Source of the DNA: a virus
Lineage: Duplodnaviria; Heunggongvirae; Uroviricota; Caudoviricetes
Length of the DNA stretch: 52,137 nucleotides
Virus record (IMG/VR): IMGVR_UViG_2778261534_000002
Strand: one strand, 5' to 3'
Shown here piece after piece: positions 1,492-50,480 of the stretch. Position numbers and translations under genes: made by a program. The notes beneath the pieces were generated by a model, which made no database searches, was not told the DNA's origin, and saw nothing but the letters and a program-made list of their open reading frames with translations. Position 1 is the first letter of the stretch, and each line of letters starts with the position of its first letter.

Positions 1492-2101
1492 GAATAATTA
1501 TGTTCTTCTTAATTATGATGAGTTAAACGAAAAGGGGCTGGCAAAACTCGTCAAAGAAATCAGCAAAGGTGGTTACAAGATAGCGAGGGTGATCCCTGCA
1601 AGTAATGGCAGGAAGAAAGATGGGATCATGACGCGCACGTTTACTCTTATTGGTATTGATGAACAGACAATGGAAGTTCAGGTTAACGATACCGGTGATA
1701 TATCTGGGATCAAACTGAATGGTAAAACAGTACCGTTCAAGCCAGTAAAAACAATGTCGGCTTTGGGGCAATCTCTTGCGGCTTTATTTAATCGCGGAGC
1801 AACTTCTTTCCAGAAGTCATTAGCTCGAAAACTTGCTCGTGCAGCAAAAAATATTGATGATGGAAATAAGAAGCGGCAGGGAGTTAAATCTAACGCTCAG
1901 AAATTAGCTGAAGCGAAAGAATCACGTGATGCACTCCGTGAAGATATCGCTAATGCTAACGACAAACTGTCTAAACTCCAGAGCAAGTCAGACAAAGTAA
2001 TGCAAGATACGGGTAACGTTAAAGCTGCCTTGTCTCAGGAAGTAGCTAAGACACGTGCTCTTAAAGAAGAAATCGCGCGCCTGGAGGATGAGCATGATTA
2101 A
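1481..2101 (+). CDS. Hdf-like protein (homolog of DarA fragment)
   Basis: 206 aa from ATG 1481 (SD GAAGGAG); weak resemblance to an internal region of the downstream DarA-like protein; ORF-track start GTG 1466 overlaps the upstream gene. Confidence 0.4.
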   Translation: MSNKNNYVLLNYDELNEKGLAKLVKEISKGGYKIARVIPASNGRKKDGIMTRTFTLIGIDEQTMEVQVNDTGDISGIKLNGKTVPFKPVKTMSALGQSLAALFNRGATSFQKSLARKLARAAKNIDDGNKKRQGVKSNAQKLAEAKESRDALREDIANANDKLSKLQSKSDKVMQDTGNVKAALSQEVAKTRALKEEIARLEDEHD

Positions 2102-4031
2102 CAATCCTTTACGAATTAATATTCAGTCTACTTTTGCTGATACGATCCCCGGCTATATGCCAAGTCGCTGGTCTTCAGAAGAATTAAGCGAAGATGACCT
2201 GATTTTTGAGGCGGCGACCTTAGAAGATATTGAGCTTGCCTATATGGGCAATGAAATTCTGGTTGTGTCTGACGAAGCTATGTTTGAGTCCATAACTACA
2301 ACCAGAATTCGGTTAGCTCAAACAATGCGAGCTTTCGTCCGTGCGCTGAATCGTGGCCTGAATGGTACGAATATTATGGCAGGGACTGATGAAGCTGGGA
2401 CCGATGAAAATGGACGTAATTGTATTGGTGGTGCGATTATCGGTCGTGTACGTCGGGTAGCTAATATCCCTGTTTTGACCGCGCAGATACCGCTTACTGA
2501 CGGGCAGAGTACAAGCATAATTTTCCACTCTCCAACAGCTGACGGGGCAAAAATAAAGAGTAACGACGAGCTTGTTGCATTTCAGTTTTTACTTAATAAG
2601 CGTAACGTAACTCACGTTGTCGCCCCGATTGGTGGGAGAGATGTTTCTTTAAGCCAGGTATGCCAGGCGCTATCTAATTTGATTGAGCGTAACAGCGAAA
2701 AATTTAAGAAAGCAAAAGAGCGCCAGGACAAAATGAAGGCAGATATTGAGAGTTATCTCAATGAAGCAGATAAACTGGCAGAAGAACGGTCAATAATGAT
2801 TGATCAGGTGGAAGTTGCGCAACGTGGGCTGACTGAAAAGCGTGCTGCTCTTACGGAGATGCAAAAAAAACTTGATGCCCAGAAAGCTATCAATGAGGAG
2901 TTACAAGCAAAACGCGATAAATTGTTGTCTTCTAAAGGAGAAAAAACGAAAGAACGAGCGTTTAGTGACCAGCTGCGACATGTAAAACATAATCTTGCCA
3001 TTGACGGAAAAACAGTGCTGGATAATGGCGCTGAAGTTAATTATGTCACGTCCGGCAGTGACAATTTCGTTACGATAGTAGCACCTGAAGGTAAATTCAG
3101 TATTGATGCCAGTGCTGTCAAAGGAGGCAGTTTGGCAGATGCTGCAACCAAATTACTTAAAGCCTACCGAGAGCATAACGCAGAAAAATATAAAGTTGAT
3201 TTGTTACCAGGCCAGCTGGAAGACTCCGAACCACCACAGACGGACCCCGAAACAAACCCAGTATCACAACCAGAGAGCCAAGATGTAGGTAAATACCACT
3301 ATGCACTTCAATCTCGCCCGGCTGGTGTTGGTGCTGTTCCGGATGGAAATAAAGCCGTGCTTGATCGTCCTGACCAGGCTGATCAGTATTACGAATATGC
3401 TCGTCACGGTATCATTACGTATGACCGTAAACTGACAGATGAAGAAGTCAGCCAGTACGAGTTGCTTTATCTTCCTGATGAAGATGAGCTGAAAGATTTT
3501 GCAGGCCAATTGGTTGCGTCCAGCATGTCGAAACATATTGATGGCTATGTGGACCTGTTTGGCAGTGACCTGAAAACATTCAAGGCGCAAGTGAAAATTC
3601 TTTTCCGCAAAGCGTTTCCAAACGTGGCGTATCCACTTAGTGATGGGGAGAACCTTTTCATTATGGACGTGTATAACGCCCTTCAAAATCATTCAAGCGA
3701 AGTAAAAACAGAGCATGTGGTTGAGCCAGAATCACAACCACAACCACAACCACAACCAGCACCAGAACAGGAGTCGGAGCCAGAAGAAGCGGGTGAATCA
3801 GCAAGTGAAGCTGATCAGGAAGCAGATAAAGCGCTGGAGTACCTGAAATCCGTGCCGGAGCAGTTTACATCCCGCGATCTGACGGTCATCAGTGCTGAAC
3901 TTGATCATGTGCAGGAAGCAGCAAACGCTCTAATCAGTGCAGGTCGATACGACGAGAACGAAGCCACTGTGGGTGCAGCAGTTGACTACCTGATCAATAT
4001 TCTGGCTGAAATTCAGCAGGGAGGTGTTTAA
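2094..4031 (+). CDS. DarA-like capsid-internal antirestriction protein
   Basis: 645 aa from ATG 2094 (GGAGG SD; ATGATTAA overlap with upstream stop); size and operon position match P1 DarA; coiled-coil region and PQ-repeat linker. Confidence 0.45.
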   Translation: MINNPLRINIQSTFADTIPGYMPSRWSSEELSEDDLIFEAATLEDIELAYMGNEILVVSDEAMFESITTTRIRLAQTMRAFVRALNRGLNGTNIMAGTDEAGTDENGRNCIGGAIIGRVRRVANIPVLTAQIPLTDGQSTSIIFHSPTADGAKIKSNDELVAFQFLLNKRNVTHVVAPIGGRDVSLSQVCQALSNLIERNSEKFKKAKERQDKMKADIESYLNEADKLAEERSIMIDQVEVAQRGLTEKRAALTEMQKKLDAQKAINEELQAKRDKLLSSKGEKTKERAFSDQLRHVKHNLAIDGKTVLDNGAEVNYVTSGSDNFVTIVAPEGKFSIDASAVKGGSLADAATKLLKAYREHNAEKYKVDLLPGQLEDSEPPQTDPETNPVSQPESQDVGKYHYALQSRPAGVGAVPDGNKAVLDRPDQADQYYEYARHGIITYDRKLTDEEVSQYELLYLPDEDELKDFAGQLVASSMSKHIDGYVDLFGSDLKTFKAQVKILFRKAFPNVAYPLSDGENLFIMDVYNALQNHSSEVKTEHVVEPESQPQPQPQPAPEQESEPEEAGESASEADQEADKALEYLKSVPEQFTSRDLTVISAELDHVQEAANALISAGRYDENEATVGAAVDYLINILAEIQQGGV

Positions 4032-10214: not shown

Positions 10215-10439
10215 ATGGTTAATGCCAATCCTTGCTCACGCCCAGAATTCATCTGGCGTTTCCACTCCCTGCAAAAACACTGCGATCACTTCGCAATTGC
10301 CGCAACCGAAAAAGAAGCCCGTTCTCTGATCCCTGATCAGTATGGTGTTCTTACTGGTCGTTTCTCTACTTCCCCACAACCAAACACTAATCCCTGGTAT
10401 CGCAATATTACCAATCCCGGAATTGCGGAGGCACACTGA
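10215..10439 (+). CDS. Icd-like small protein of immunity module 1
   Basis: 74 aa; paralog of 49339..49554 (shared EFIWRF and AATE-EARS motifs); stop overlaps ant start (TGATG). Confidence 0.5.
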   Translation: MVNANPCSRPEFIWRFHSLQKHCDHFAIAATEKEARSLIPDQYGVLTGRFSTSPQPNTNPWYRNITNPGIAEAH

Positions 10440-11146
10440 TGGAAATCTGCATTCTTGAAAAGCCATCAATGACCAGCATTGAGATCGCGGAGCTGGTGGG
10501 AAGTCGCCCGGATAACGTTAAACGCACTATTGAACGCTTGAGTAAATCAGGTGTTATTCCACTTCCTCCAATGGAGGTTTCCGAAAATATCAATAACTTA
10601 GGATTTAAAGTTAAAAATTCACACTACGTCTTCGAAGGCGAGCAAGGCAAGCGTGACAGTATCATTGTCGTTGCGCAGCTTTCTCCCGAATTTACCGCCC
10701 GGCTGGTGGACCGCTGGCGCGAACTGGAAGAACAAGTACGCCAGCCGTTGACCGAAATAGAGATGATCGCCGCAATGGCTGCAAATGCAGTTCAGCAGCA
10801 AAAGCGGCTTCATGTTGTTGAGTCAAAGGTTAGCCAGGTGGTAGAAACCGTCGAGCAAATCAAGAAGGGCAACATGCCAGATGGTTACATTGGCTACCGC
10901 CAGCTGGCTGCGAAATGTGGCCTGACCGAAGCCAAATGCCGCAACCTTGTCAACGCTTACCGGATTCCCACCGATACACATGAGTTTTTAACTCCAGAGG
11001 GGGTATTGTCGCGTCGTTCCATCGTGGCCTTATCTCCCTTCATGAATGCTTTTAACCGGATGATGTCGGAGGCTGAACACCGAGGAAAACGCTGGTATCA
11101 CCCCAAAATGGGGCAATTCCAGGTGATCGGTTGGGGAGGTGAGTGA
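10439..11146 (+). CDS. ant: antirepressor (Ant-like)
   Basis: 235 aa; N-terminal SIEIAELVG...PDNVKRTIE region typical of Rha/Ant-type phage regulators; paralog of 49554..50480; translationally coupled to icd-like gene. Confidence 0.55.
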   Translation: MEICILEKPSMTSIEIAELVGSRPDNVKRTIERLSKSGVIPLPPMEVSENINNLGFKVKNSHYVFEGEQGKRDSIIVVAQLSPEFTARLVDRWRELEEQVRQPLTEIEMIAAMAANAVQQQKRLHVVESKVSQVVETVEQIKKGNMPDGYIGYRQLAAKCGLTEAKCRNLVNAYRIPTDTHEFLTPEGVLSRRSIVALSPFMNAFNRMMSEAEHRGKRWYHPKMGQFQVIGWGGE

Positions 11147-11343
11147 TGGACATCATGCAGGCGGTAAAAAAAATCAGGGAAGGACAGGCTGAAGTGTGCC
11201 GCCGTAAAGCATGGAGTGTTGGTGTATGGGCCTGGCCTGATAATTACTCTACTACCGGATGGTTTTGTATTAATGGACTCCAGGTCCGGGAAGTTGATTT
11301 ATCGACGGCTGATATAGTCGGTAATGATTGGATCGTGACTTGA
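11143..11343 (+). CDS. small DUF2829-like protein
   Basis: 66 aa; CRRKAW...GNDWIVT signature shared with four other domains in the window; start overlaps ant stop. Confidence 0.45.
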   Translation: MMDIMQAVKKIREGQAEVCRRKAWSVGVWAWPDNYSTTGWFCINGLQVREVDLSTADIVGNDWIVT

Positions 11344-11351
11344 AGCGTGAT

Positions 11352-11376
11352 GCCCCGGCCTGGCCGGGGCTTTTTT
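11352..11376. terminator. bidirectional intrinsic terminator
   Basis: GCCCCGGCC-tgg-CCGGGGC then TTTTTT, between convergent genes. Confidence 0.65.
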
Positions 11377-11861
11377 CATGCCTCATTAGTTGAGGTTGCT
11401 GCGTCTCCGACTGGTAACAGAGCGGTATTGCGTGGTTCGCCAGCAGGCCAGCGATAGCCAGACACTCTTGATGTTGGGAATGCGCGAATATTAACCGCAT
11501 CCCCCTGGTTCCCACCCAGGACAAGCAGATCGCCATTGGCGCGGCGTCCGACAACGAAGCCTACGTGCCCACCGCCTACGCGGGTAAATACAACGATACA
11601 TCCGTATGCCGGTGTATCTAATTTCTCGCCCCAATCCAGATAGGATTTTGCCGACTCAAATCTTGTTGAGCGGATGCCTACACGTTCCAGCATTGCACCG
11701 ACAAATGCTGCGCACCACGGCGTTTCATCGTCTTTAATTCCGCCGCGCTTGATGTCGCGCCAGAACTGAACGATTTCAGGGTTGTGTTTAGCGCCTTTTA
11801 TTTCAGTCAGGCCAATGTGCTTACGGGCTTCAATTAGCCAGCGAGGTTCAATGTTTGCCAT
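11376..11861 (-). CDS. CHAP/NlpC-P60-like putative cell-wall hydrolase (TIGR02594-type)
   Basis: 161 aa; conserved Cys motif PWCAAFV and His motif GGHVGFV. Confidence 0.45.
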   Translation of the reverse strand: MANIEPRWLIEARKHIGLTEIKGAKHNPEIVQFWRDIKRGGIKDDETPWCAAFVGAMLERVGIRSTRFESAKSYLDWGEKLDTPAYGCIVVFTRVGGGHVGFVVGRRANGDLLVLGGNQGDAVNIRAFPTSRVSGYRWPAGEPRNTALLPVGDAATSTNEA

Positions 11862-19904: not shown

Positions 19905-20213
19905 TTGTATCGCAATATGCGTTATGTGTATGAGCATACTCACGCCACTCCAAACGGTGGCCTGCGAGGCATAAGGACGGCAATAAAAATGGTGGCAGAG
20001 GGCCAAAAGAAGGGATATCCCGATCTTTCTATAGACCTTGCTTGTGGGGGATACCACGGAATGCGCATTGAGATGAAACATGGGAGAAATCGCCTGACTC
20101 CCGAACAACTCGTCTGGATGACCCGCCTCACTGAAGCCGGTTACTACTGCTTTGAGGCGCGCAGTGCCGCTGAAGCCATAAAAGCTATCACGGAGTATGT
20201 TTGTCTTGATTAA
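19905..20213 (+). CDS. VRR-NUC domain nuclease
   Basis: 102 aa; GYPDLSIDL...EMK arrangement typical of VRR-NUC (PD-(D/E)xK) proteins. Confidence 0.6.
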   Translation: MYRNMRYVYEHTHATPNGGLRGIRTAIKMVAEGQKKGYPDLSIDLACGGYHGMRIEMKHGRNRLTPEQLVWMTRLTEAGYYCFEARSAAEAIKAITEYVCLD

Positions 20214-20227
20214 ACGGAGAAATCGTT

Positions 20228-20428
20228 TTGCGTTTACTTAACGTGGCAGAACTTATCCCTGCAGGAACTAATGCTATCGCTCGTCGTCGCTCATGGCAGC
20301 AGGCTCTATGTATTGAGATCTCGAAACGTATCAATGGAAGTTTTGAAGCTCGCAATATTGTTACTGGCGATAAGGTTCACATAACCCCGGAAAGTGCAAG
20401 CGCTGATGATTGGGAGTTTGTACATTGA
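20228..20428 (+). CDS. small DUF2829-like protein
   Basis: 66 aa; ARRRSW ... ADDWEFV signature as in the other DUF2829-like domains. Confidence 0.4.
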   Translation: MRLLNVAELIPAGTNAIARRRSWQQALCIEISKRINGSFEARNIVTGDKVHITPESASADDWEFVH

Positions 20429-26010: not shown

Positions 26011-26586
26011 ATGTTAATGGCGAACGATAACGCATATGCAGAAGAAGATCTCATTTTGAGTGACTTCATAGGGAAGCGGGAACGCTGGACCCAAAAGCGA
26101 GAGGAACTTTACGCCTCATTAGTTCGCAAAGGCGTCAATATCGAAACCGCACAGAGCGGCGATATGACAGTGGTAAGCGTTGGATTGCACGGTGTAAGCG
26201 TGTCAGCAATCAATCATGAGCCATACGTTGCGTTATCCGAGTCAATGGTAAGGTTAGTTAAGTTCCTGAAGTACACAGAAGCGAATAATGTAATCATTGG
26301 CAAAAAGAATATCCCTTTTTCCTCGGCTTTTTACTGGATGATGAAAGGGCTTGATGCCCGGCGGACATCATGGCCTAAAGGGAGCTATATATCGATGTTC
26401 CGTGGCAGCATTGGCAGCAAAGAAAAGCTCTTCGAATTCTTGCCGGAAGAGGCATTCGATATTGTGGAAGGGTGCGATGTGATGGTGATGCCTCGCCTGG
26501 TAATGATGAATGGGGATTTACAGGCGCAGACAGACTGGTTTGCAACTGGTGTGGATATTATCGCGACTGACTGGGAGGCTTTCTGA
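26011..26586 (+). CDS. hypothetical protein with C-terminal DUF2829-like domain
   Basis: 191 aa; C-terminal ~90 aa carry KGLDARRTSW ... IIATDWEAF signature. Confidence 0.45.
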   Translation: MLMANDNAYAEEDLILSDFIGKRERWTQKREELYASLVRKGVNIETAQSGDMTVVSVGLHGVSVSAINHEPYVALSESMVRLVKFLKYTEANNVIIGKKNIPFSSAFYWMMKGLDARRTSWPKGSYISMFRGSIGSKEKLFEFLPEEAFDIVEGCDVMVMPRLVMMNGDLQAQTDWFATGVDIIATDWEAF

Positions 26587-31623: not shown

Positions 31624-31655
31624 TAACTTTAAATAATTGGCATTATTTAAAGTTA
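31624..31655. other. rox: rox-type recombinase target site
   Basis: TAACTTTAAATAAT-TGGC-ATTATTTAAAGTTA: perfect 14-bp inverted arms; reverse complement equals the published rox sequence as I recall it; 150 bp upstream of the recombinase gene. Confidence 0.85.
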
Positions 31656-31807
31656 AGCTATAATCATGGGTGGATGATCAGTGTTGACATCACTGAAAAT
31701 ACGTGCCTCGAATCAAAGGTTTGAATCTTGAAAATTAACTTATAGCTACCCTGTCATTTTTATATTTTTCGCGTAGCGTCATCTGTATATAGAGGTTAAA
31801 TAGTTTC

Positions 31808-33254: not shown

Positions 33255-33727
33255 AAACTTATTACACATCTCTGAATTGTTACCCGTCTTCCTATCCAGA
33301 ATTATCCGGGAAGCTGTTAGCTCTATTAGCTAAAGCACCTACGGAATGGTTTAAGCCAGTCGTTATCAATCCACACTTCCTGGATTACGGATCTGTTCGT
33401 ACTCGTAACGAACTCAAAAACCTACTGGCGCATGGATTCATTCGACACCGTGCCGGGAAAGGCTATCAGTTAGCGATTGCGCCAGAAGAGGCCGTGCGGC
33501 TATTCGCATATCGTGACAGCCAGACAAAAGCTCGGGTAATAGCTCAAATACTTCATAACGGCAGCACCTATGCCCGCCAGTTTGGCGGCGACACGTCGCA
33601 GTTCTTGCGGGCGGTGCGATCGCTGGAGGAGCAAGGAGTTATTGAAAGTTCCTGTCTTCCTGTTCCTACCGTTCCACATATCAAACGTCGGGTTTACACC
33701 TTCACGCAGAGAGCTAAAAAACAATGA
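33251..33727 (+). CDS. hypothetical protein
   Basis: 158 aa from GTG with SD AGGGGG; overlaps neighbours by 4 nt on both sides. Confidence 0.4.
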   Translation: MKTYYTSLNCYPSSYPELSGKLLALLAKAPTEWFKPVVINPHFLDYGSVRTRNELKNLLAHGFIRHRAGKGYQLAIAPEEAVRLFAYRDSQTKARVIAQILHNGSTYARQFGGDTSQFLRAVRSLEEQGVIESSCLPVPTVPHIKRRVYTFTQRAKKQ

Positions 33728-34218
33728 TTTACGTAAAAGTGAAACGCCTACATCCGGCAGCAAAACTTCCAGCTTATGCCACCTCCGGATCGGCGGCGAT
33801 GGATTTTGAGGCTGTTGAAATAAAACCATGCGTCGATAGCAATGGTGCAATTTCCTCAAGCTGGTGGGTGTATACCGGACTGGCTATGGAGATCCCGCCC
33901 GGCTGGTGTCTGAAACTCTATCCGCGATCCGGATTGGGCTGCAAAAAACATACTCGCCTGGCTAACTGCGTAGGAATTATCGACTCCGATTATCGCGGCG
34001 AAATCATGGCAAAACTGATTACTGATCCCGGCGGGGAAGGCGTTTGTCTCAAGCCTGGAATGGCTGTCATGCAAGGAATTTTTGAACGAGTTGAACAAGT
34101 CTCACTAGTCGAGGTTGAGGAACTCAACGAAACGGAACGTGGTGCTGGTGGCTTTGGTAGCACATCGGAAGGCCACTTTGAAATTAAGCGTTCACCGCTT
34201 CAGTACGAAAAGTTATAA
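33724..34218 (+). CDS. dut: dUTPase
   Basis: 164 aa; dUTPase motifs PAYATSGSAAMD, YPRSGLG, GIIDSDYRGE, GGFGSTSEG. Confidence 0.8.
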   Translation: MIYVKVKRLHPAAKLPAYATSGSAAMDFEAVEIKPCVDSNGAISSSWWVYTGLAMEIPPGWCLKLYPRSGLGCKKHTRLANCVGIIDSDYRGEIMAKLITDPGGEGVCLKPGMAVMQGIFERVEQVSLVEVEELNETERGAGGFGSTSEGHFEIKRSPLQYEKL

Positions 34219-34232
34219 GCAGAGAAAAGACT

Positions 34233-34910
34233 ATGAATAACATGGCAACGAAAGAGCTTTTTAAGTTCCTTCCCAAATACAAAGCTCACAAAAACGTTAG
34301 TGCATCGAAAATCAAAAATGTTGTTATTTTCGGAGTAACTGATGCCCCACTTTGGGGCTGCATCGAACTCGTTGAACCAAAAGGGGCAACAGTTTGTGTT
34401 GACGCAATGTTTTTACAAAAACACCGACCAAAAACTGGCGGGTATCTGATCGTTTATGAAAACGGTTATCTGTTCTATGCCCCGGAGAAACCATTTGAGG
34501 AACGCTATGGCCTGGTTAACGACGCCTCCAAAAATGGAACCACGGTCATCATTACGGATGACAACGGCGTGATGATTAATCTTACCGGGAGCGTAACTAT
34601 TTCTGCTGGTGGCATCACCACCCAGCAAGAAGAAATCGACCTTGAAGCAGCCGACTTTTCTGACGCGCTGATGTGGCTGAAGGATGGCAAGAAAGTTGCT
34701 CGACGCGGGTGGAACGGCGAAAACCAATTCTGCTGGCTGGTTCCTGAAGGACAGTACCCGGCACGAATGGAAGCCATTAAGGGATATTTCCCCGGCGACC
34801 TCGTTCCGTATGGTGCTTATTTCGCCTTAAAAAATGCACAAGGTGTAGTTGTTCCGTGGGTTCCTTCTGTAGGCGACTTACTGGCATGTGACTGGTTTGT
34901 AGTGGAGTGA
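34233..34910 (+). CDS. protein with C-terminal DUF2829-like domain
   Basis: 225 aa; C-terminus ALMWLKDGKKVARRGWNGENQFCWL ... PWVPSVGDLLACDWFVVE is the clearest DUF2829-like domain in the window. Confidence 0.5.
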   Translation: MNNMATKELFKFLPKYKAHKNVSASKIKNVVIFGVTDAPLWGCIELVEPKGATVCVDAMFLQKHRPKTGGYLIVYENGYLFYAPEKPFEERYGLVNDASKNGTTVIITDDNGVMINLTGSVTISAGGITTQQEEIDLEAADFSDALMWLKDGKKVARRGWNGENQFCWLVPEGQYPARMEAIKGYFPGDLVPYGAYFALKNAQGVVVPWVPSVGDLLACDWFVVE

Positions 34911-35693: not shown

Positions 35694-35696
35694 CAA

Positions 35697-35728
35697 AAAG
35701 CCCGCTTGGTATGGCGGGCTTCTTTTCA
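35697..35728. terminator. bidirectional intrinsic terminator
   Basis: AGCCCGC-ttggtatg-GCGGGCT flanked by A-run and TCTTTTC, between convergent genes. Confidence 0.75.
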
Positions 35729-44505: not shown

Positions 44506-45254
44506 TCTTCAAGGGATTTCTCCGCATATTCACCGGACAGGCCATCAAGCGGATGCGGTTCATTAGCCAACTCTTCTTTCGCTGACAAAATCATGCGTGT
44601 AACGTCGAAAACTTCACGCAAAGACTTATTGATAAATCCGTGATTGAACGCAGCAGCAAGACGGCTTGCGGTGTAGTTAATCCCCTCGTTGCGTGCCTCC
44701 GCACGTACTTCAGCCAGGAAAGCGTCGGTGGCCGGAGTTTCAGGAATCCGTCTCCTCATCAGTTCTATTGCATGATTGAACCCGAAATCTTCCGCGAGAG
44801 ATACGTCATCCATATTGTCATTGTCATCCTCAATATCCCGTGATTCTGGAATTGCAGACTTTATTCCCGCATTCTCCGCCGCCAGCGCCGCGCAATTACC
44901 CTCCAGCTCTGCAATGCGCTGTTTTGCGGCATCAAGTTCAATCGATAATTTTTCCAACTGCTCTTTATGCTTCTTGTATTCCTGATATGCGTGCCAGGAC
45001 TGACCTTTGCGCACACTATCAGTAATATCAGTAATCTGTTCTGGTGTTAGCGTGGTCAGTGGCTGTGCTGGAAAAATCATCACTTGCCCGGCATCCCAAT
45101 CAAAACCCACCTGAATTGACTGAACCTCAACTGATGGTGTTGAACCGATGCGACCAGGCGAATGAACAACGATCGTTACATCCATATCGCGACGATGGCT
45201 GTGGTTGTTGGACAAAATACGATTCACCAACTCAGAAAATTTGGAAAATTTCAT
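44469..45254 (-). CDS. coiled-coil paralog A (Ea22-like family)
   Basis: 261 aa from ATG 45254 (ATGA overlap with upstream gene); shares coiled coil ([15 protein letters not shown]) and C-terminal block ([19 protein letters not shown] ... EQIRKG) with 45574..46242 and 46239..46748. Confidence 0.5.
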
Positions 45255-45577
45255 GCTGATTCCCTTTGCTCTTCCTGGATAATGTTGTTGCAATCTTTCA
45301 CGCACTCGTTGCAGATGAAAACGTTGTCCCCGGCAATTAACTTTTTAACGGTGTGCTGGGATTTGTTACAGAAGCTGCAATAAAGCGTTGGACTGGCTGA
45401 TACGGATGGTGCGCCAGATGTCAGCCGCGCGATGTCGTTCTTGCGACGCAATATCACACGGCTGCACTCGACCAGCATCTCCGGGGATATCTTCTCCTCC
45501 GTAGCGAGCGTTTCTAATCGTTCGAGTATGTGGAAGGCTTTTTCCTGGGTAATTGCAGAATGCGATGTGGTCATCAT
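45251..45577 (-). CDS. protein with ClpX-type zinc-finger domain
   Basis: 108 aa; C-terminal [35 protein letters not shown] closely matches the ClpX N-terminal C4 zinc-binding domain pattern. Confidence 0.6.
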
Positions 45578-49338: not shown

Positions 49339-49554
49339 ATGGCTACTATCCCCACCCCAACTCATTCTGAATTTATCTGGCGTTTCTATTCCTGCCAAAA
49401 ACACCTCTATATCTGCGTCATGGCTGCAACCGAAGCAGAAGCGCGCTCATACCTTCCCGAAGAACCCTGCATTTTTGCTGCTCGCTTCACTCTTGATGCG
49501 ATGGAGATCCTCAATTACTGGAATCTGCCGATGAACTGCGTGGAGGTGCACTGA
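49339..49554 (+). CDS. Icd-like small protein of immunity module 2
   Basis: 71 aa; paralog of 10215..10439; SD AAGGAGG; stop overlaps ant start. Confidence 0.5.
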   Translation: MATIPTPTHSEFIWRFYSCQKHLYICVMAATEAEARSYLPEEPCIFAARFTLDAMEILNYWNLPMNCVEVH

Positions 49555-50480
49555 TGAATCTGTCCATCTCTCAAAAAGCGACAATGACCAGCATTGAGAT
49601 CGCGGAACTGGTAGGTAAGCGCCCTGATAACGTTAAACGCACCATTGAACACCTGGCGGAACGGGGGGTAATATCTTTTCCTCAAATTGAGGAAAAGCCC
49701 ACCGCAGGCCGCCCGGCGAGCTATTACGTCTTCGAAGGCGAGCAAGGCAAGCGCGATAGTATTGTCGTCGTCGCACAGCTCTCTCCCGAATTTACCGCCC
49801 GGCTGGTGGACCGCTGGCGCGAACTGGAGAATGCCCGGGTACAGTTAAAATCAAAAGCCGAAATCCTGGCTGAAATGGCGCAAATGCATCTTGAGCATGA
49901 ACGCCGGATCAACGCCGTTAATGCCCAGGTAGCCGAAGTATCGGCACAAGTGTCCAAAGTCGCTGAAACCGTCGAGCAAATCAAGAAAGGCAATATGCCG
50001 GAAGGCTACATTGGCTACCGCCAGCTGGCGGCGAAATGTGGCCTGACTGAAGCCAAATGCCGCAACCTTGTCAACGCTTACCGGATTCCCACCGATACGC
50101 ATGAGTTTTTAACTCCAGATGGTTTGCTTGCGAGACGCTCCATTGTGGCCCTGGCCCCCTTCCGGAAAGCCTTTAAGCAGGTGATGTCGGAGGCAGAACC
50201 ACGCAATAAACGCTGGTATCATCCAAAGATGGGGATGTTTCAGGCAATCCACCATCCTGTGCCTGAAAGTCCAAAGGCAAACCTGTCGTTGCATACCGCC
50301 AGAGAGAGGATTAAAACAGGGTATGCAATCGTATGCCGTCGAGCATCTTGGCCTGAAGGTGTATGGGTATGGCCCGAAGGTGGATCACGAAAGCACTGGC
50401 GCACTATCCGGGATGGGAAAATCCATGCGATTGATTTAGCTCCAGAGGATGTTGTTGCTACGGACTGGATTGTTAGTTAA
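49554..50480 (+). CDS. antirepressor (Ant-like) fused to C-terminal DUF2829-like domain
   Basis: 308 aa; first ~235 aa paralogous to 10439..11146; last ~60 aa (CRRASWPEGVW ... VATDWIVS) paralogous to the separate 66-aa ORF 11143..11343. Confidence 0.55.
   Translation: MNLSISQKATMTSIEIAELVGKRPDNVKRTIEHLAERGVISFPQIEEKPTAGRPASYYVFEGEQGKRDSIVVVAQLSPEFTARLVDRWRELENARVQLKSKAEILAEMAQMHLEHERRINAVNAQVAEVSAQVSKVAETVEQIKKGNMPEGYIGYRQLAAKCGLTEAKCRNLVNAYRIPTDTHEFLTPDGLLARRSIVALAPFRKAFKQVMSEAEPRNKRWYHPKMGMFQAIHHPVPESPKANLSLHTARERIKTGYAIVCRRASWPEGVWVWPEGGSRKHWRTIRDGKIHAIDLAPEDVVATDWIVS

Follow-up and report, generated by a model that had tools for sequence, protein, structure and literature searches.

We analysed a 52,137-nucleotide (nt) stretch of viral DNA (IMG/VR record IMGVR_UViG_2778261534_000002; hereafter the window, meaning the whole of this stretch), which is a D6-like member of the P1-family phage-plasmids. 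It shares 96-99% DNA identity with Escherichia phage D6 (megablast) and keeps the gene order of that phage (darA/darB, portal, repL, icd-ant, pacAB, c1, dre, phd-doc). Five open reading frames (ORFs), all on the + strand and all conserved across D6-like elements, carry a common signature: 34233-34910, 26011-26586, 11143-11343, 20228-20428 and the antirepressor gene Ant2 (49554-50480). An earlier annotation made from the letters alone (the sequence-only reading) had assigned this signature to DUF2829, the family of the anti-Thoeris protein Tad2, and had suggested a set of anti-defence sponges that sequester immune signalling nucleotides. We favour a more graded picture, which we consider fairly probable, in which the phage-plasmid carries three tiers of Tad2-related sequence: a Tad2 domain of known type at 34233-34910, a divergent copy at 26011-26586 and three minimal domains. 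This picture builds on homology, motif conservation and gene order, from which we infer ligand binding, oligomeric state and the roles of the partner proteins.

In each of the five ORFs, a block G-x(2-5)-R-[RKT]-x(1-2)-W is followed, 30-75 residues on and near the stop codon, by [AGC]-x-DW. Hand and MAFFT alignments give a common layout of a short helix, G-x-x-x-(A/C)-R-R-x-x-W, two strand pairs, a short helix ending in (A/G/C)-x-D-W and a final strand right before the stop. A regular expression for the signature matched four of the 651 six-frame ORF segments of the window, compared with 0.016 expected from 500 residue shuffles; 34233-34910, which reads RRGW and has one residue fewer preceding the W, lies outside these matches. 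A combined hidden Markov model (HMM) of the domain retrieved exactly the five ORFs (E values of 1e-15 to 1e-28) and no sixth copy in the window, the next best match having an E value of 0.32. Since the count exceeds that of the shuffles and the combined HMM picks these five only, the shared signature is real and far beyond chance, and the sequence-only reading had located it correctly in every case. The ORF at 11143-11343 likewise exists as it was described, with the ATG at 11146 as the likelier start (Table 1). NCBIfam gave zero matches for the five proteins and their neighbours.

Table 1. Signature-bearing genes of the window, followed by their partner genes and the associated transcription signals (aa, amino acids).
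Feature	Position	Strand	Description
Two-domain Tad2 protein	34233..34910	+	225 aa; Dec-like N-domain aa ~1-135; Tad2/DUF2829 C-domain aa 138-225, nt 34644-34907
Divergent Tad2-like protein	26011..26586	+	191 aa; Tad2-like C-domain aa 103-190, nt 26317-26580
65-aa minimal Tad2-like domain gene	11146..11343	+	ATG overlaps ant stop (TGATG); GGAGG upstream
66-aa minimal domain gene	20228..20428	+	TTG start; GGAG upstream
Ant2	49554..50480	+	308-aa Rha/Ant antirepressor with fused minimal domain (nt 50292-50474); PHROG 63 E 2.9e-65
Rha/Ant-type antirepressor (Ant)	10439..11146	+	235 aa, without C-terminal minimal domain; PHROG 63 E 1.4e-47
VRR-NUC nuclease gene (pmgM-like)	19905..20213	+	Directly upstream of the 66-aa gene; PF08774 E 6e-5
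GC-rich hairpin	11352..11376		gccccggc ctg gccggggc then tttttt; ends the icd-ant-minidomain operon, at the end of the convergent CHAP-domain gene
Sigma-70-like promoter	31637..31664	+	TTGGCA-16-TATAAT; 11/12 consensus match, sole one in 4.9 kb; consensus only; upstream of dre-orf-orf-dut-tad2-isaA-like
Terminator-like hairpin	35695..35724		Just past the isaA-like gene; closes the Tad2 gene string

The C-terminal domain of 34233-34910 is the clearest of the five. In Pfam, DUF2829 is PF11195, now named 'Tad2-like' (gathering cut-off 25 bits), and the domain matches this family with 80 bits (E = 1.8e-22, aa 141-224). In the PDB, the C-terminal 88 residues match ModTad2, the Tad2 of a Myroides odoratus prophage, at E = 6e-20 and 49% identity (PDB 8V3E; 9EIB, with bound His-ADPR), and HgmTad2/AcrIIA7, SPO1 Tad2 and SptTad2 are matched as well. 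Identity rises to 68% with the 87-aa Tad2_68. The family named in the sequence-only reading is right for this protein. In a survey of 7,492 Tad2 homologues, Tad2_68 was rated y/y/y for type II Thoeris, a positive outcome at each of three steps, and individual re-transformation showed activity on type I as well (Table S2, Hadary et al. 2025, bioRxiv 10.1101/2025.08.24.671296); the meaning of the table columns was checked against the methods and the MoTad2 control row. The exact 225-aa sequence is absent from the tested sponges of that survey. Like Tad2_68 and ModTad2, from which it is separated by a single 1-residue indel, the domain has a beta2-beta3 insertion of equal length and the motifs GWNG and W-x-P-S-x-x-D; unlike these stand-alone proteins of 87-88 aa, it forms the C-terminal third of a larger protein.

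The ligand-pocket motifs, one in the beta1-beta2 loop (G-W-N-G) and one ahead of alpha3 (W-x-x-S-x-[TS]-D), are retained. Residues W25, N26, W73, S76 and D79 of SPO1 Tad2 contact gcADPR, and the double (W21A/N22A) and triple (S90A/T92A/D93A) mutants of HgmTad2 lose gcADPR binding; both sets of residues align with the GWNG and PWVPSVGD motifs of 34233-34910, which preserve each of W, N, W, S and D. SPO1 Tad2 (gp34.65; PDB 8SME-8SMG) and HgmTad2/AcrIIA7 (PDB 8KBI-8KBM) belong to the same Pfam family and have the same predicted order of secondary-structure elements; identity with the present domain is 38-41%, and the long cyclic-dinucleotide-binding insertion of HgmTad2 is absent here. [quoted passage not shown] It is not new as a DUF2829 protein: the family is large, PGAP labels this gene 'DUF2829 domain-containing protein' in many ~92-kb plasmids, and the surrounding 2 kb are 100% identical in many ~92-kb plasmids of E. 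coli and Salmonella.

ModTad2 inhibits type II Thoeris and sequesters His-ADPR; a second pocket of the protein takes up cUMP/cCMP, and Pycsar is blocked too. Considering its close tested relatives, we propose the following hypothetical mode of action for 34233-34910, in which (i) the protein would form an oligomer; (ii) TIR-made signals, likely His-ADPR (type II Thoeris) and 3'cADPR (type I), would be bound in a pocket that the GWNG loop makes up together with the W-x-P-S-x-G-D segment; (iii) a second pocket would possibly take up the cUMP/cCMP of Pycsar; and (iv) capture of the signal would keep the host effector off.

The C-terminal domain of 26011-26586 also exceeds the Pfam cut-off (39.1 bits, E = 1.1e-9, aa 103-190), and the syntenic 191-aa gene of a diverged D6-like contig has a precomputed PF11195 match. 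Of the five DUF2829 domains that had been claimed, the Pfam search upholds those of 34233-34910 and 26011-26586 and not the other three. The domain matches Tad2_69 (BLASTP E = 6e-11) and Tad2_72 (phmmer E = 8e-6), and an AGGAG lies 5 nt ahead of the ATG of the gene. Its pocket reads SWPK for GWNG and then DWFATGVD, so that both Trp and the Asp are kept (W25, W73 and D79 of SPO1 Tad2) and Pro stands in place of Asn; unlike SPO1 Tad2 and HgmTad2, it has this Pro at the position of N26 and an insertion of another kind. Among tested variants, Tad2_72 (KAWPKN; AWPK in place of GWNG) blocks type I Thoeris and Tad2_79 (KWS/EW) inhibits Thoeris (Hadary et al. 2025). Since Tad2_72 acts with AWPK, a GWN-type motif is not strictly required. 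As far as its sequence allows such a prediction, 26011-26586 would probably also be a small-molecule sponge.

The first ~100 residues of this protein (26011-26316) have no Pfam, PHROG function, NCBIfam or PDB match, and a PDB sequence search with the whole 191-aa protein returned noise only. Because fusions of Tad2 with further sponge domains (Acb4, Sequestin) are common, we regard this N-domain as a candidate for a new kind of partner. The fusions of the window resemble Tad2-Acb4 and Tad2-Sequestin/PF21825 in that a Tad2 domain and a second domain share one polypeptide; unlike in those sponge-sponge fusions, the partners here are a Dec-like domain, the 100-aa N-domain without family match and a Rha/Ant antirepressor, none of them known sponges. 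The Pfam search gave no match to PF21825 or PF13876. PGAP annotates 26011-26586 as hypothetical, and the Tad2-like identity suggested by these comparisons goes modestly beyond public annotation.

The three remaining copies are minimal domains: the 65-aa protein of 11146-11343, the 66-aa protein of 20228-20428, and the C-terminus of Ant2 (aa ~247-307). The first and the last of these are clearly homologous: PHROG 7385, the family of the 65-aa protein, matches Ant2 aa 247-307 at E = 9.7e-14; a direct phmmer comparison of the 65-aa protein with the Ant2 C-terminus gives E = 1e-15, and the two domains are 38% identical. We compared profiles of a 65-aa/Ant2 family (7 members) and a 66-aa family (10 sequences, down to 32% identity); an exhaustive HMMER search with the latter gained six diverged members, and three further matches, to repeat proteins, were rejected as spurious. 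The two families align over their full length with 79% hhalign probability (E = 1.5e-5). For each profile, the next-best matches among the 651 ORF segments are the other group, a result repeated in three independent diverged loci; 20228-20428 is the most distant of the five copies. None of the three has the beta2-beta3 insertion, from which Tad2 builds its dimer interface and second pocket, and the Trp-loop and the Asn of GWN are absent too. Their pocket motif reads AWSV, SWPE or SWQQ, the second Trp is missing, and the 66-aa family is also without the Asp, 20228-20428 having Ser at this position.

In the searches made, distribution is narrow. Tblastn in 50,697 phage records found no homologues of the minimal domains beyond D6, word-indexed searches returned near-identical D6-like sequences only, IMG/VR scans returned D6-like contigs only, two scans of genome contigs found nothing, and the 50-94.8 kb region of phage P1 (pmgM included) holds no detectable copy. 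Stand-alone calls of the Ant2-type C-domain are present in databases, and PGAP annotates the 65-aa and 66-aa proteins as hypothetical. The three minimal domains form one lineage-restricted family, which we take to be probably a reduced version of the Tad2 fold with a degraded pocket.

Several lines connect this family to Tad2. Tad2-like is the sole Pfam family matched repeatedly, by 5/7 members of the 65-aa/Ant2 family and 2/10 of the 66-aa family (best E = 0.012 and 0.15, respectively); 11143-11343 itself scores 15.7 bits (E = 0.022), below the cut-off, over model positions 1-72 of 73. The Ant2 C-domain has a gapless 46-aa BLASTP match to Tad2_80 (E = 3e-5), running from RR..WP through DW.V, and this 73-aa protein, like the Ant2 C-domain, has neither insertion nor Trp-loop and shows the same motif spacing. 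With the two minimal-domain profiles, 16/18 and 14/18 diverse Tad2 references outscore 95% of their own shuffles. The Tad2 fold has a helix at the N-terminus, an antiparallel sheet of five strands and a short helix ahead of the final strand. The AlphaFold2 (AF2) models of the 65-aa and 66-aa proteins both show the element order alpha1, beta1, beta2, beta3, beta4, alpha3, beta5, as in Tad2. Structural comparison, which the sequence-only reading had put forward as a check, divides the two: the 65-aa model (mean predicted local distance difference test, pLDDT, 73) finds Tad2 in all of the top 11 Foldseek matches among 350,542 PDB chains (E = 0.2-0.6, template modelling score 0.47-0.54), and the 66-aa model (pLDDT 83.6) retrieves no Tad2.

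A number of observations weigh against our three-tiered reading, and they concern each of its tiers. For the minimal domains, 20228-20428 and Ant2 have no PF11195 match, the 65-aa/Ant2 family aligns with a four-sequence Tad2 reference at 24% hhalign probability (E = 8e-4, full length) and the 66-aa family at 1%, and the Foldseek E values of the 65-aa model are 0.2 or worse; no single test of their link to Tad2 is significant, and the signal is weak but consistent. The partner-module idea set out below draws on gene order and fusion only. Tad2_69, the closest tested relative of 26011-26586, was inactive on all seven systems assayed (Hadary et al. 2025). As to 34233-34910, whose N-domain resembles the Dec protein of phage L (PDB 6E3C), a trimeric Dec-like stalk may be incompatible with the homotetramer of Tad2, in which pockets lie where protomers meet, and Hadary et al. 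(2025) left out of their survey proteins with a 6E3C domain beside a sponge domain.

These values bear directly on an alternative in which the minimal domains are an unrelated, small SH3-like beta-barrel family that shares RR-x-x-W ... DW with Tad2 by chance. Such an origin would explain why the 66-aa model matches Tudor, PWWP, lambda-CI-CTD and Hfq-type barrels only, and why PDB sequence searches with both minimal-domain profiles gave, as with the 191-aa query, noise only (malate dehydrogenase, MHC, endonuclease I), next to Pfam matches that are all sub-threshold. It does not readily account for a single family being matched repeatedly across Pfam over the full model length, for Foldseek top matches of the 65-aa model that are exclusively Tad2, for real Tad2 sequences that consistently beat their own shuffles, for the identical order of secondary structure, or for the gapless Tad2_80 match with equal motif spacing. 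We consider a chance resemblance unlikely.

Two immI-like modules lie in the window (10215-11343 and 49339-50480), each with an icd-like gene followed by a Rha/Ant-type antirepressor. The 235-aa Ant and the N-terminal 232 aa of Ant2 are 66% identical, and both belong to the Rha/Ant type; Ant2 matches PF09669 (Rha N-terminal winged-helix) with 29.9 bits, exactly at the cut-off. In Ant2 the minimal domain is fused by a short linker, and in the other module it is a separate gene that is probably translationally coupled to the upstream ant. The modules are like phage P1 immI (icd-ant) and the Rha/Roi-type antirepressors of PHROG 63, with two icd-like and ant pairs and strong PHROG 63 matches; unlike in P1 immI, the antirepressor here has a minimal Tad2-like domain fused to it or encoded by a gene overlapping its stop, an arrangement for which tblastn found D6 as the sole other sequenced phage. 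Downstream of the icd-ant-minidomain operon, the hairpin alone parts it from a convergent gene (11376-11861, - strand) for a 161-aa CHAP-domain protein (PGAP: TIGR02594 family), and could terminate transcription in both directions.

The 66-aa gene follows a VRR-NUC nuclease gene, and relatives whose identity falls as low as 32% retain the arrangement darB - ulx - orf - VRR-NUC - minidomain - pmgR-like - pmgS-like, in one case including a 4-nt overlap. This gene is under purifying selection, with a ratio of nonsynonymous to synonymous change (pN/pS) of about 0.25. For the 65-aa gene (window 11143-11340, set against loci L030, L036, L037 and L043), near-identical D6-like relatives differ by nonsynonymous changes only, with pS 0 and pN up to 0.03, and more distant relatives gave pN/pS of 0.4-0.7; with so few changes counted, selection cannot be called. 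In a diverged D6-like contig (locus L072, 9032-12201), the region downstream of pmgS holds genes for a pentapeptide-repeat protein, an ABC ATPase and a YcaO-domain protein; this cassette, which looks like that of a microcin or a ribosomally synthesised and post-translationally modified peptide, is absent from the window.

Because each minimal domain is fused to, or lies directly after, a partner (an antirepressor twice and the VRR-NUC nuclease once), we propose that these domains most likely act on their partners, in an accessory, oligomerisation or regulatory capacity, and not as free sponges; motif loss, gene order and fusion all point to such a role. The competing view takes the proposed arsenal at face value: all five domains would be functional sponges, with a different immune signal for each. 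The Tad2 family is indeed versatile, acting on types I, II and IV Thoeris, CBASS and Pycsar and occurring in fusions, the activity of the KAWPKN and KWS/EW variants means that loss of GWN does not rule out binding, and the conservation of all five domains across D6-like elements would suit such an arsenal. However, the minimal domains are without the insertion that provides dimer interface and second pocket, without the Trp-loop and, in one case, without the Asp, and Tad2_80, the one minimal homologue that has been assayed, showed no activity on any of the seven systems (Hadary et al. 2025), nor did the SWP-type Tad2_69 (80 aa), which has the ARRxSWPxG motif in common with the 191-aa protein and Ant2. 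Unlike these stand-alone, inactive proteins, each minimal domain of the window is either joined to an antirepressor or encoded immediately behind an antirepressor or VRR-NUC nuclease gene, and an antirepressor fusion together with nuclease synteny fixed over deep divergence is unlike the patchy, stand-alone distribution of known sponges. We regard five working sponges as quite improbable. The suggested set of sponges holds for 34233-34910, is plausible for 26011-26586 and is unsupported for the three minimal domains; on the comparisons made here, the window probably encodes one sponge of known type, one probable sponge and three accessory modules, so that a five-fold arsenal is only partly supported.

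The N-domain of 34233-34910 adds a further question to the first tier. Residues 56-126 match residues 53-122 of phage L Dec at E = 0.008 (19 bits), a match that takes in a GGYL...G.L.Y...FE..Y stretch, and tblastn finds the N-domain alone in other phages, once labelled as a capsid decoration protein. Full-length two-domain homologues occur in SJ46, Ro157c2YLVW and Klebsiella phage SopranoGao. As Hadary et al. (2025) name and exclude it, the Dec-like-Tad2 architecture is already known to exist. In phage D6 (NC_050154.1 88126-88566), an in-frame deletion of residues 21-99 (window 34293-34529) takes away most of the Dec-like domain. The RCS47 homologue matches aa 1-152 only, and its match stops where an inverted repeat is annotated beside isaA, suggesting interruption by an insertion element. 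In the window, the gene is part of the series dre - orf - orf - dut - tad2 - isaA-like, bounded by the promoter-like site and the terminator-like hairpin. It is directly downstream of the dUTPase gene (33724-34218), and tblastn matches in Bacillus phages JL and Shanette also adjoin a dUTP pyrophosphatase gene, which may be coincidence.

A role of the 225-aa protein chiefly in the virion, as a Dec-like decoration displaying DUF2829 on the capsid surface, is very unlikely: the Dec match, the lone N-domains and the exclusion of such combinations from the sponge survey speak for it, yet the gene follows a sigma-70-like promoter and has the recombinase, dut and genes for plasmid maintenance as its neighbours, not head genes, phage D6 has lost much of the N-domain and keeps a 100% identical Tad2 domain, and that domain has an intact pocket and is close to an active sponge that stands alone.

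A major means by which phages disarm signalling-based immunity (Thoeris, CBASS, Pycsar) is the Tad2 sponge. According to the three-tiered reading, D6-like phage-plasmids of ~92 kb, which are common in E. coli and Salmonella, encode a protein closely related to an assayed inhibitor of type I and II Thoeris and also have a second, unannotated Tad2-like gene, a pair that would predict the hosts in which D6-like elements can establish. The Dec-like-Tad2 architecture, a form set aside by published screens, is here placed in a common phage-plasmid lineage, which is a modest advance on public annotation. Only the minimal domains, with their antirepressor and nuclease partners, could open up something new, and support for this is weak. 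In the furthest reading of these domains, which we think highly improbable, the ligand-binding fold of Tad2 would have been turned into a small sensor or adaptor on the antirepressor and the VRR-NUC nuclease, with a host immune or stress nucleotide feeding the lysis-lysogeny switch or nuclease control and not just being soaked up.

Two further ORFs gave weak profile matches and were rejected as additional copies. One, 2904-3152 (- strand), lies antisense inside the darA-like gene 2055-4031. The other, 45251-45577 (- strand), was matched spuriously by the 66-aa family profile; it encodes a small ClpX-type zinc-finger protein (PGAP label ClpX C4-type zinc finger) and is located amid a series of early genes of ead/Ea22-like and lambdoid type.

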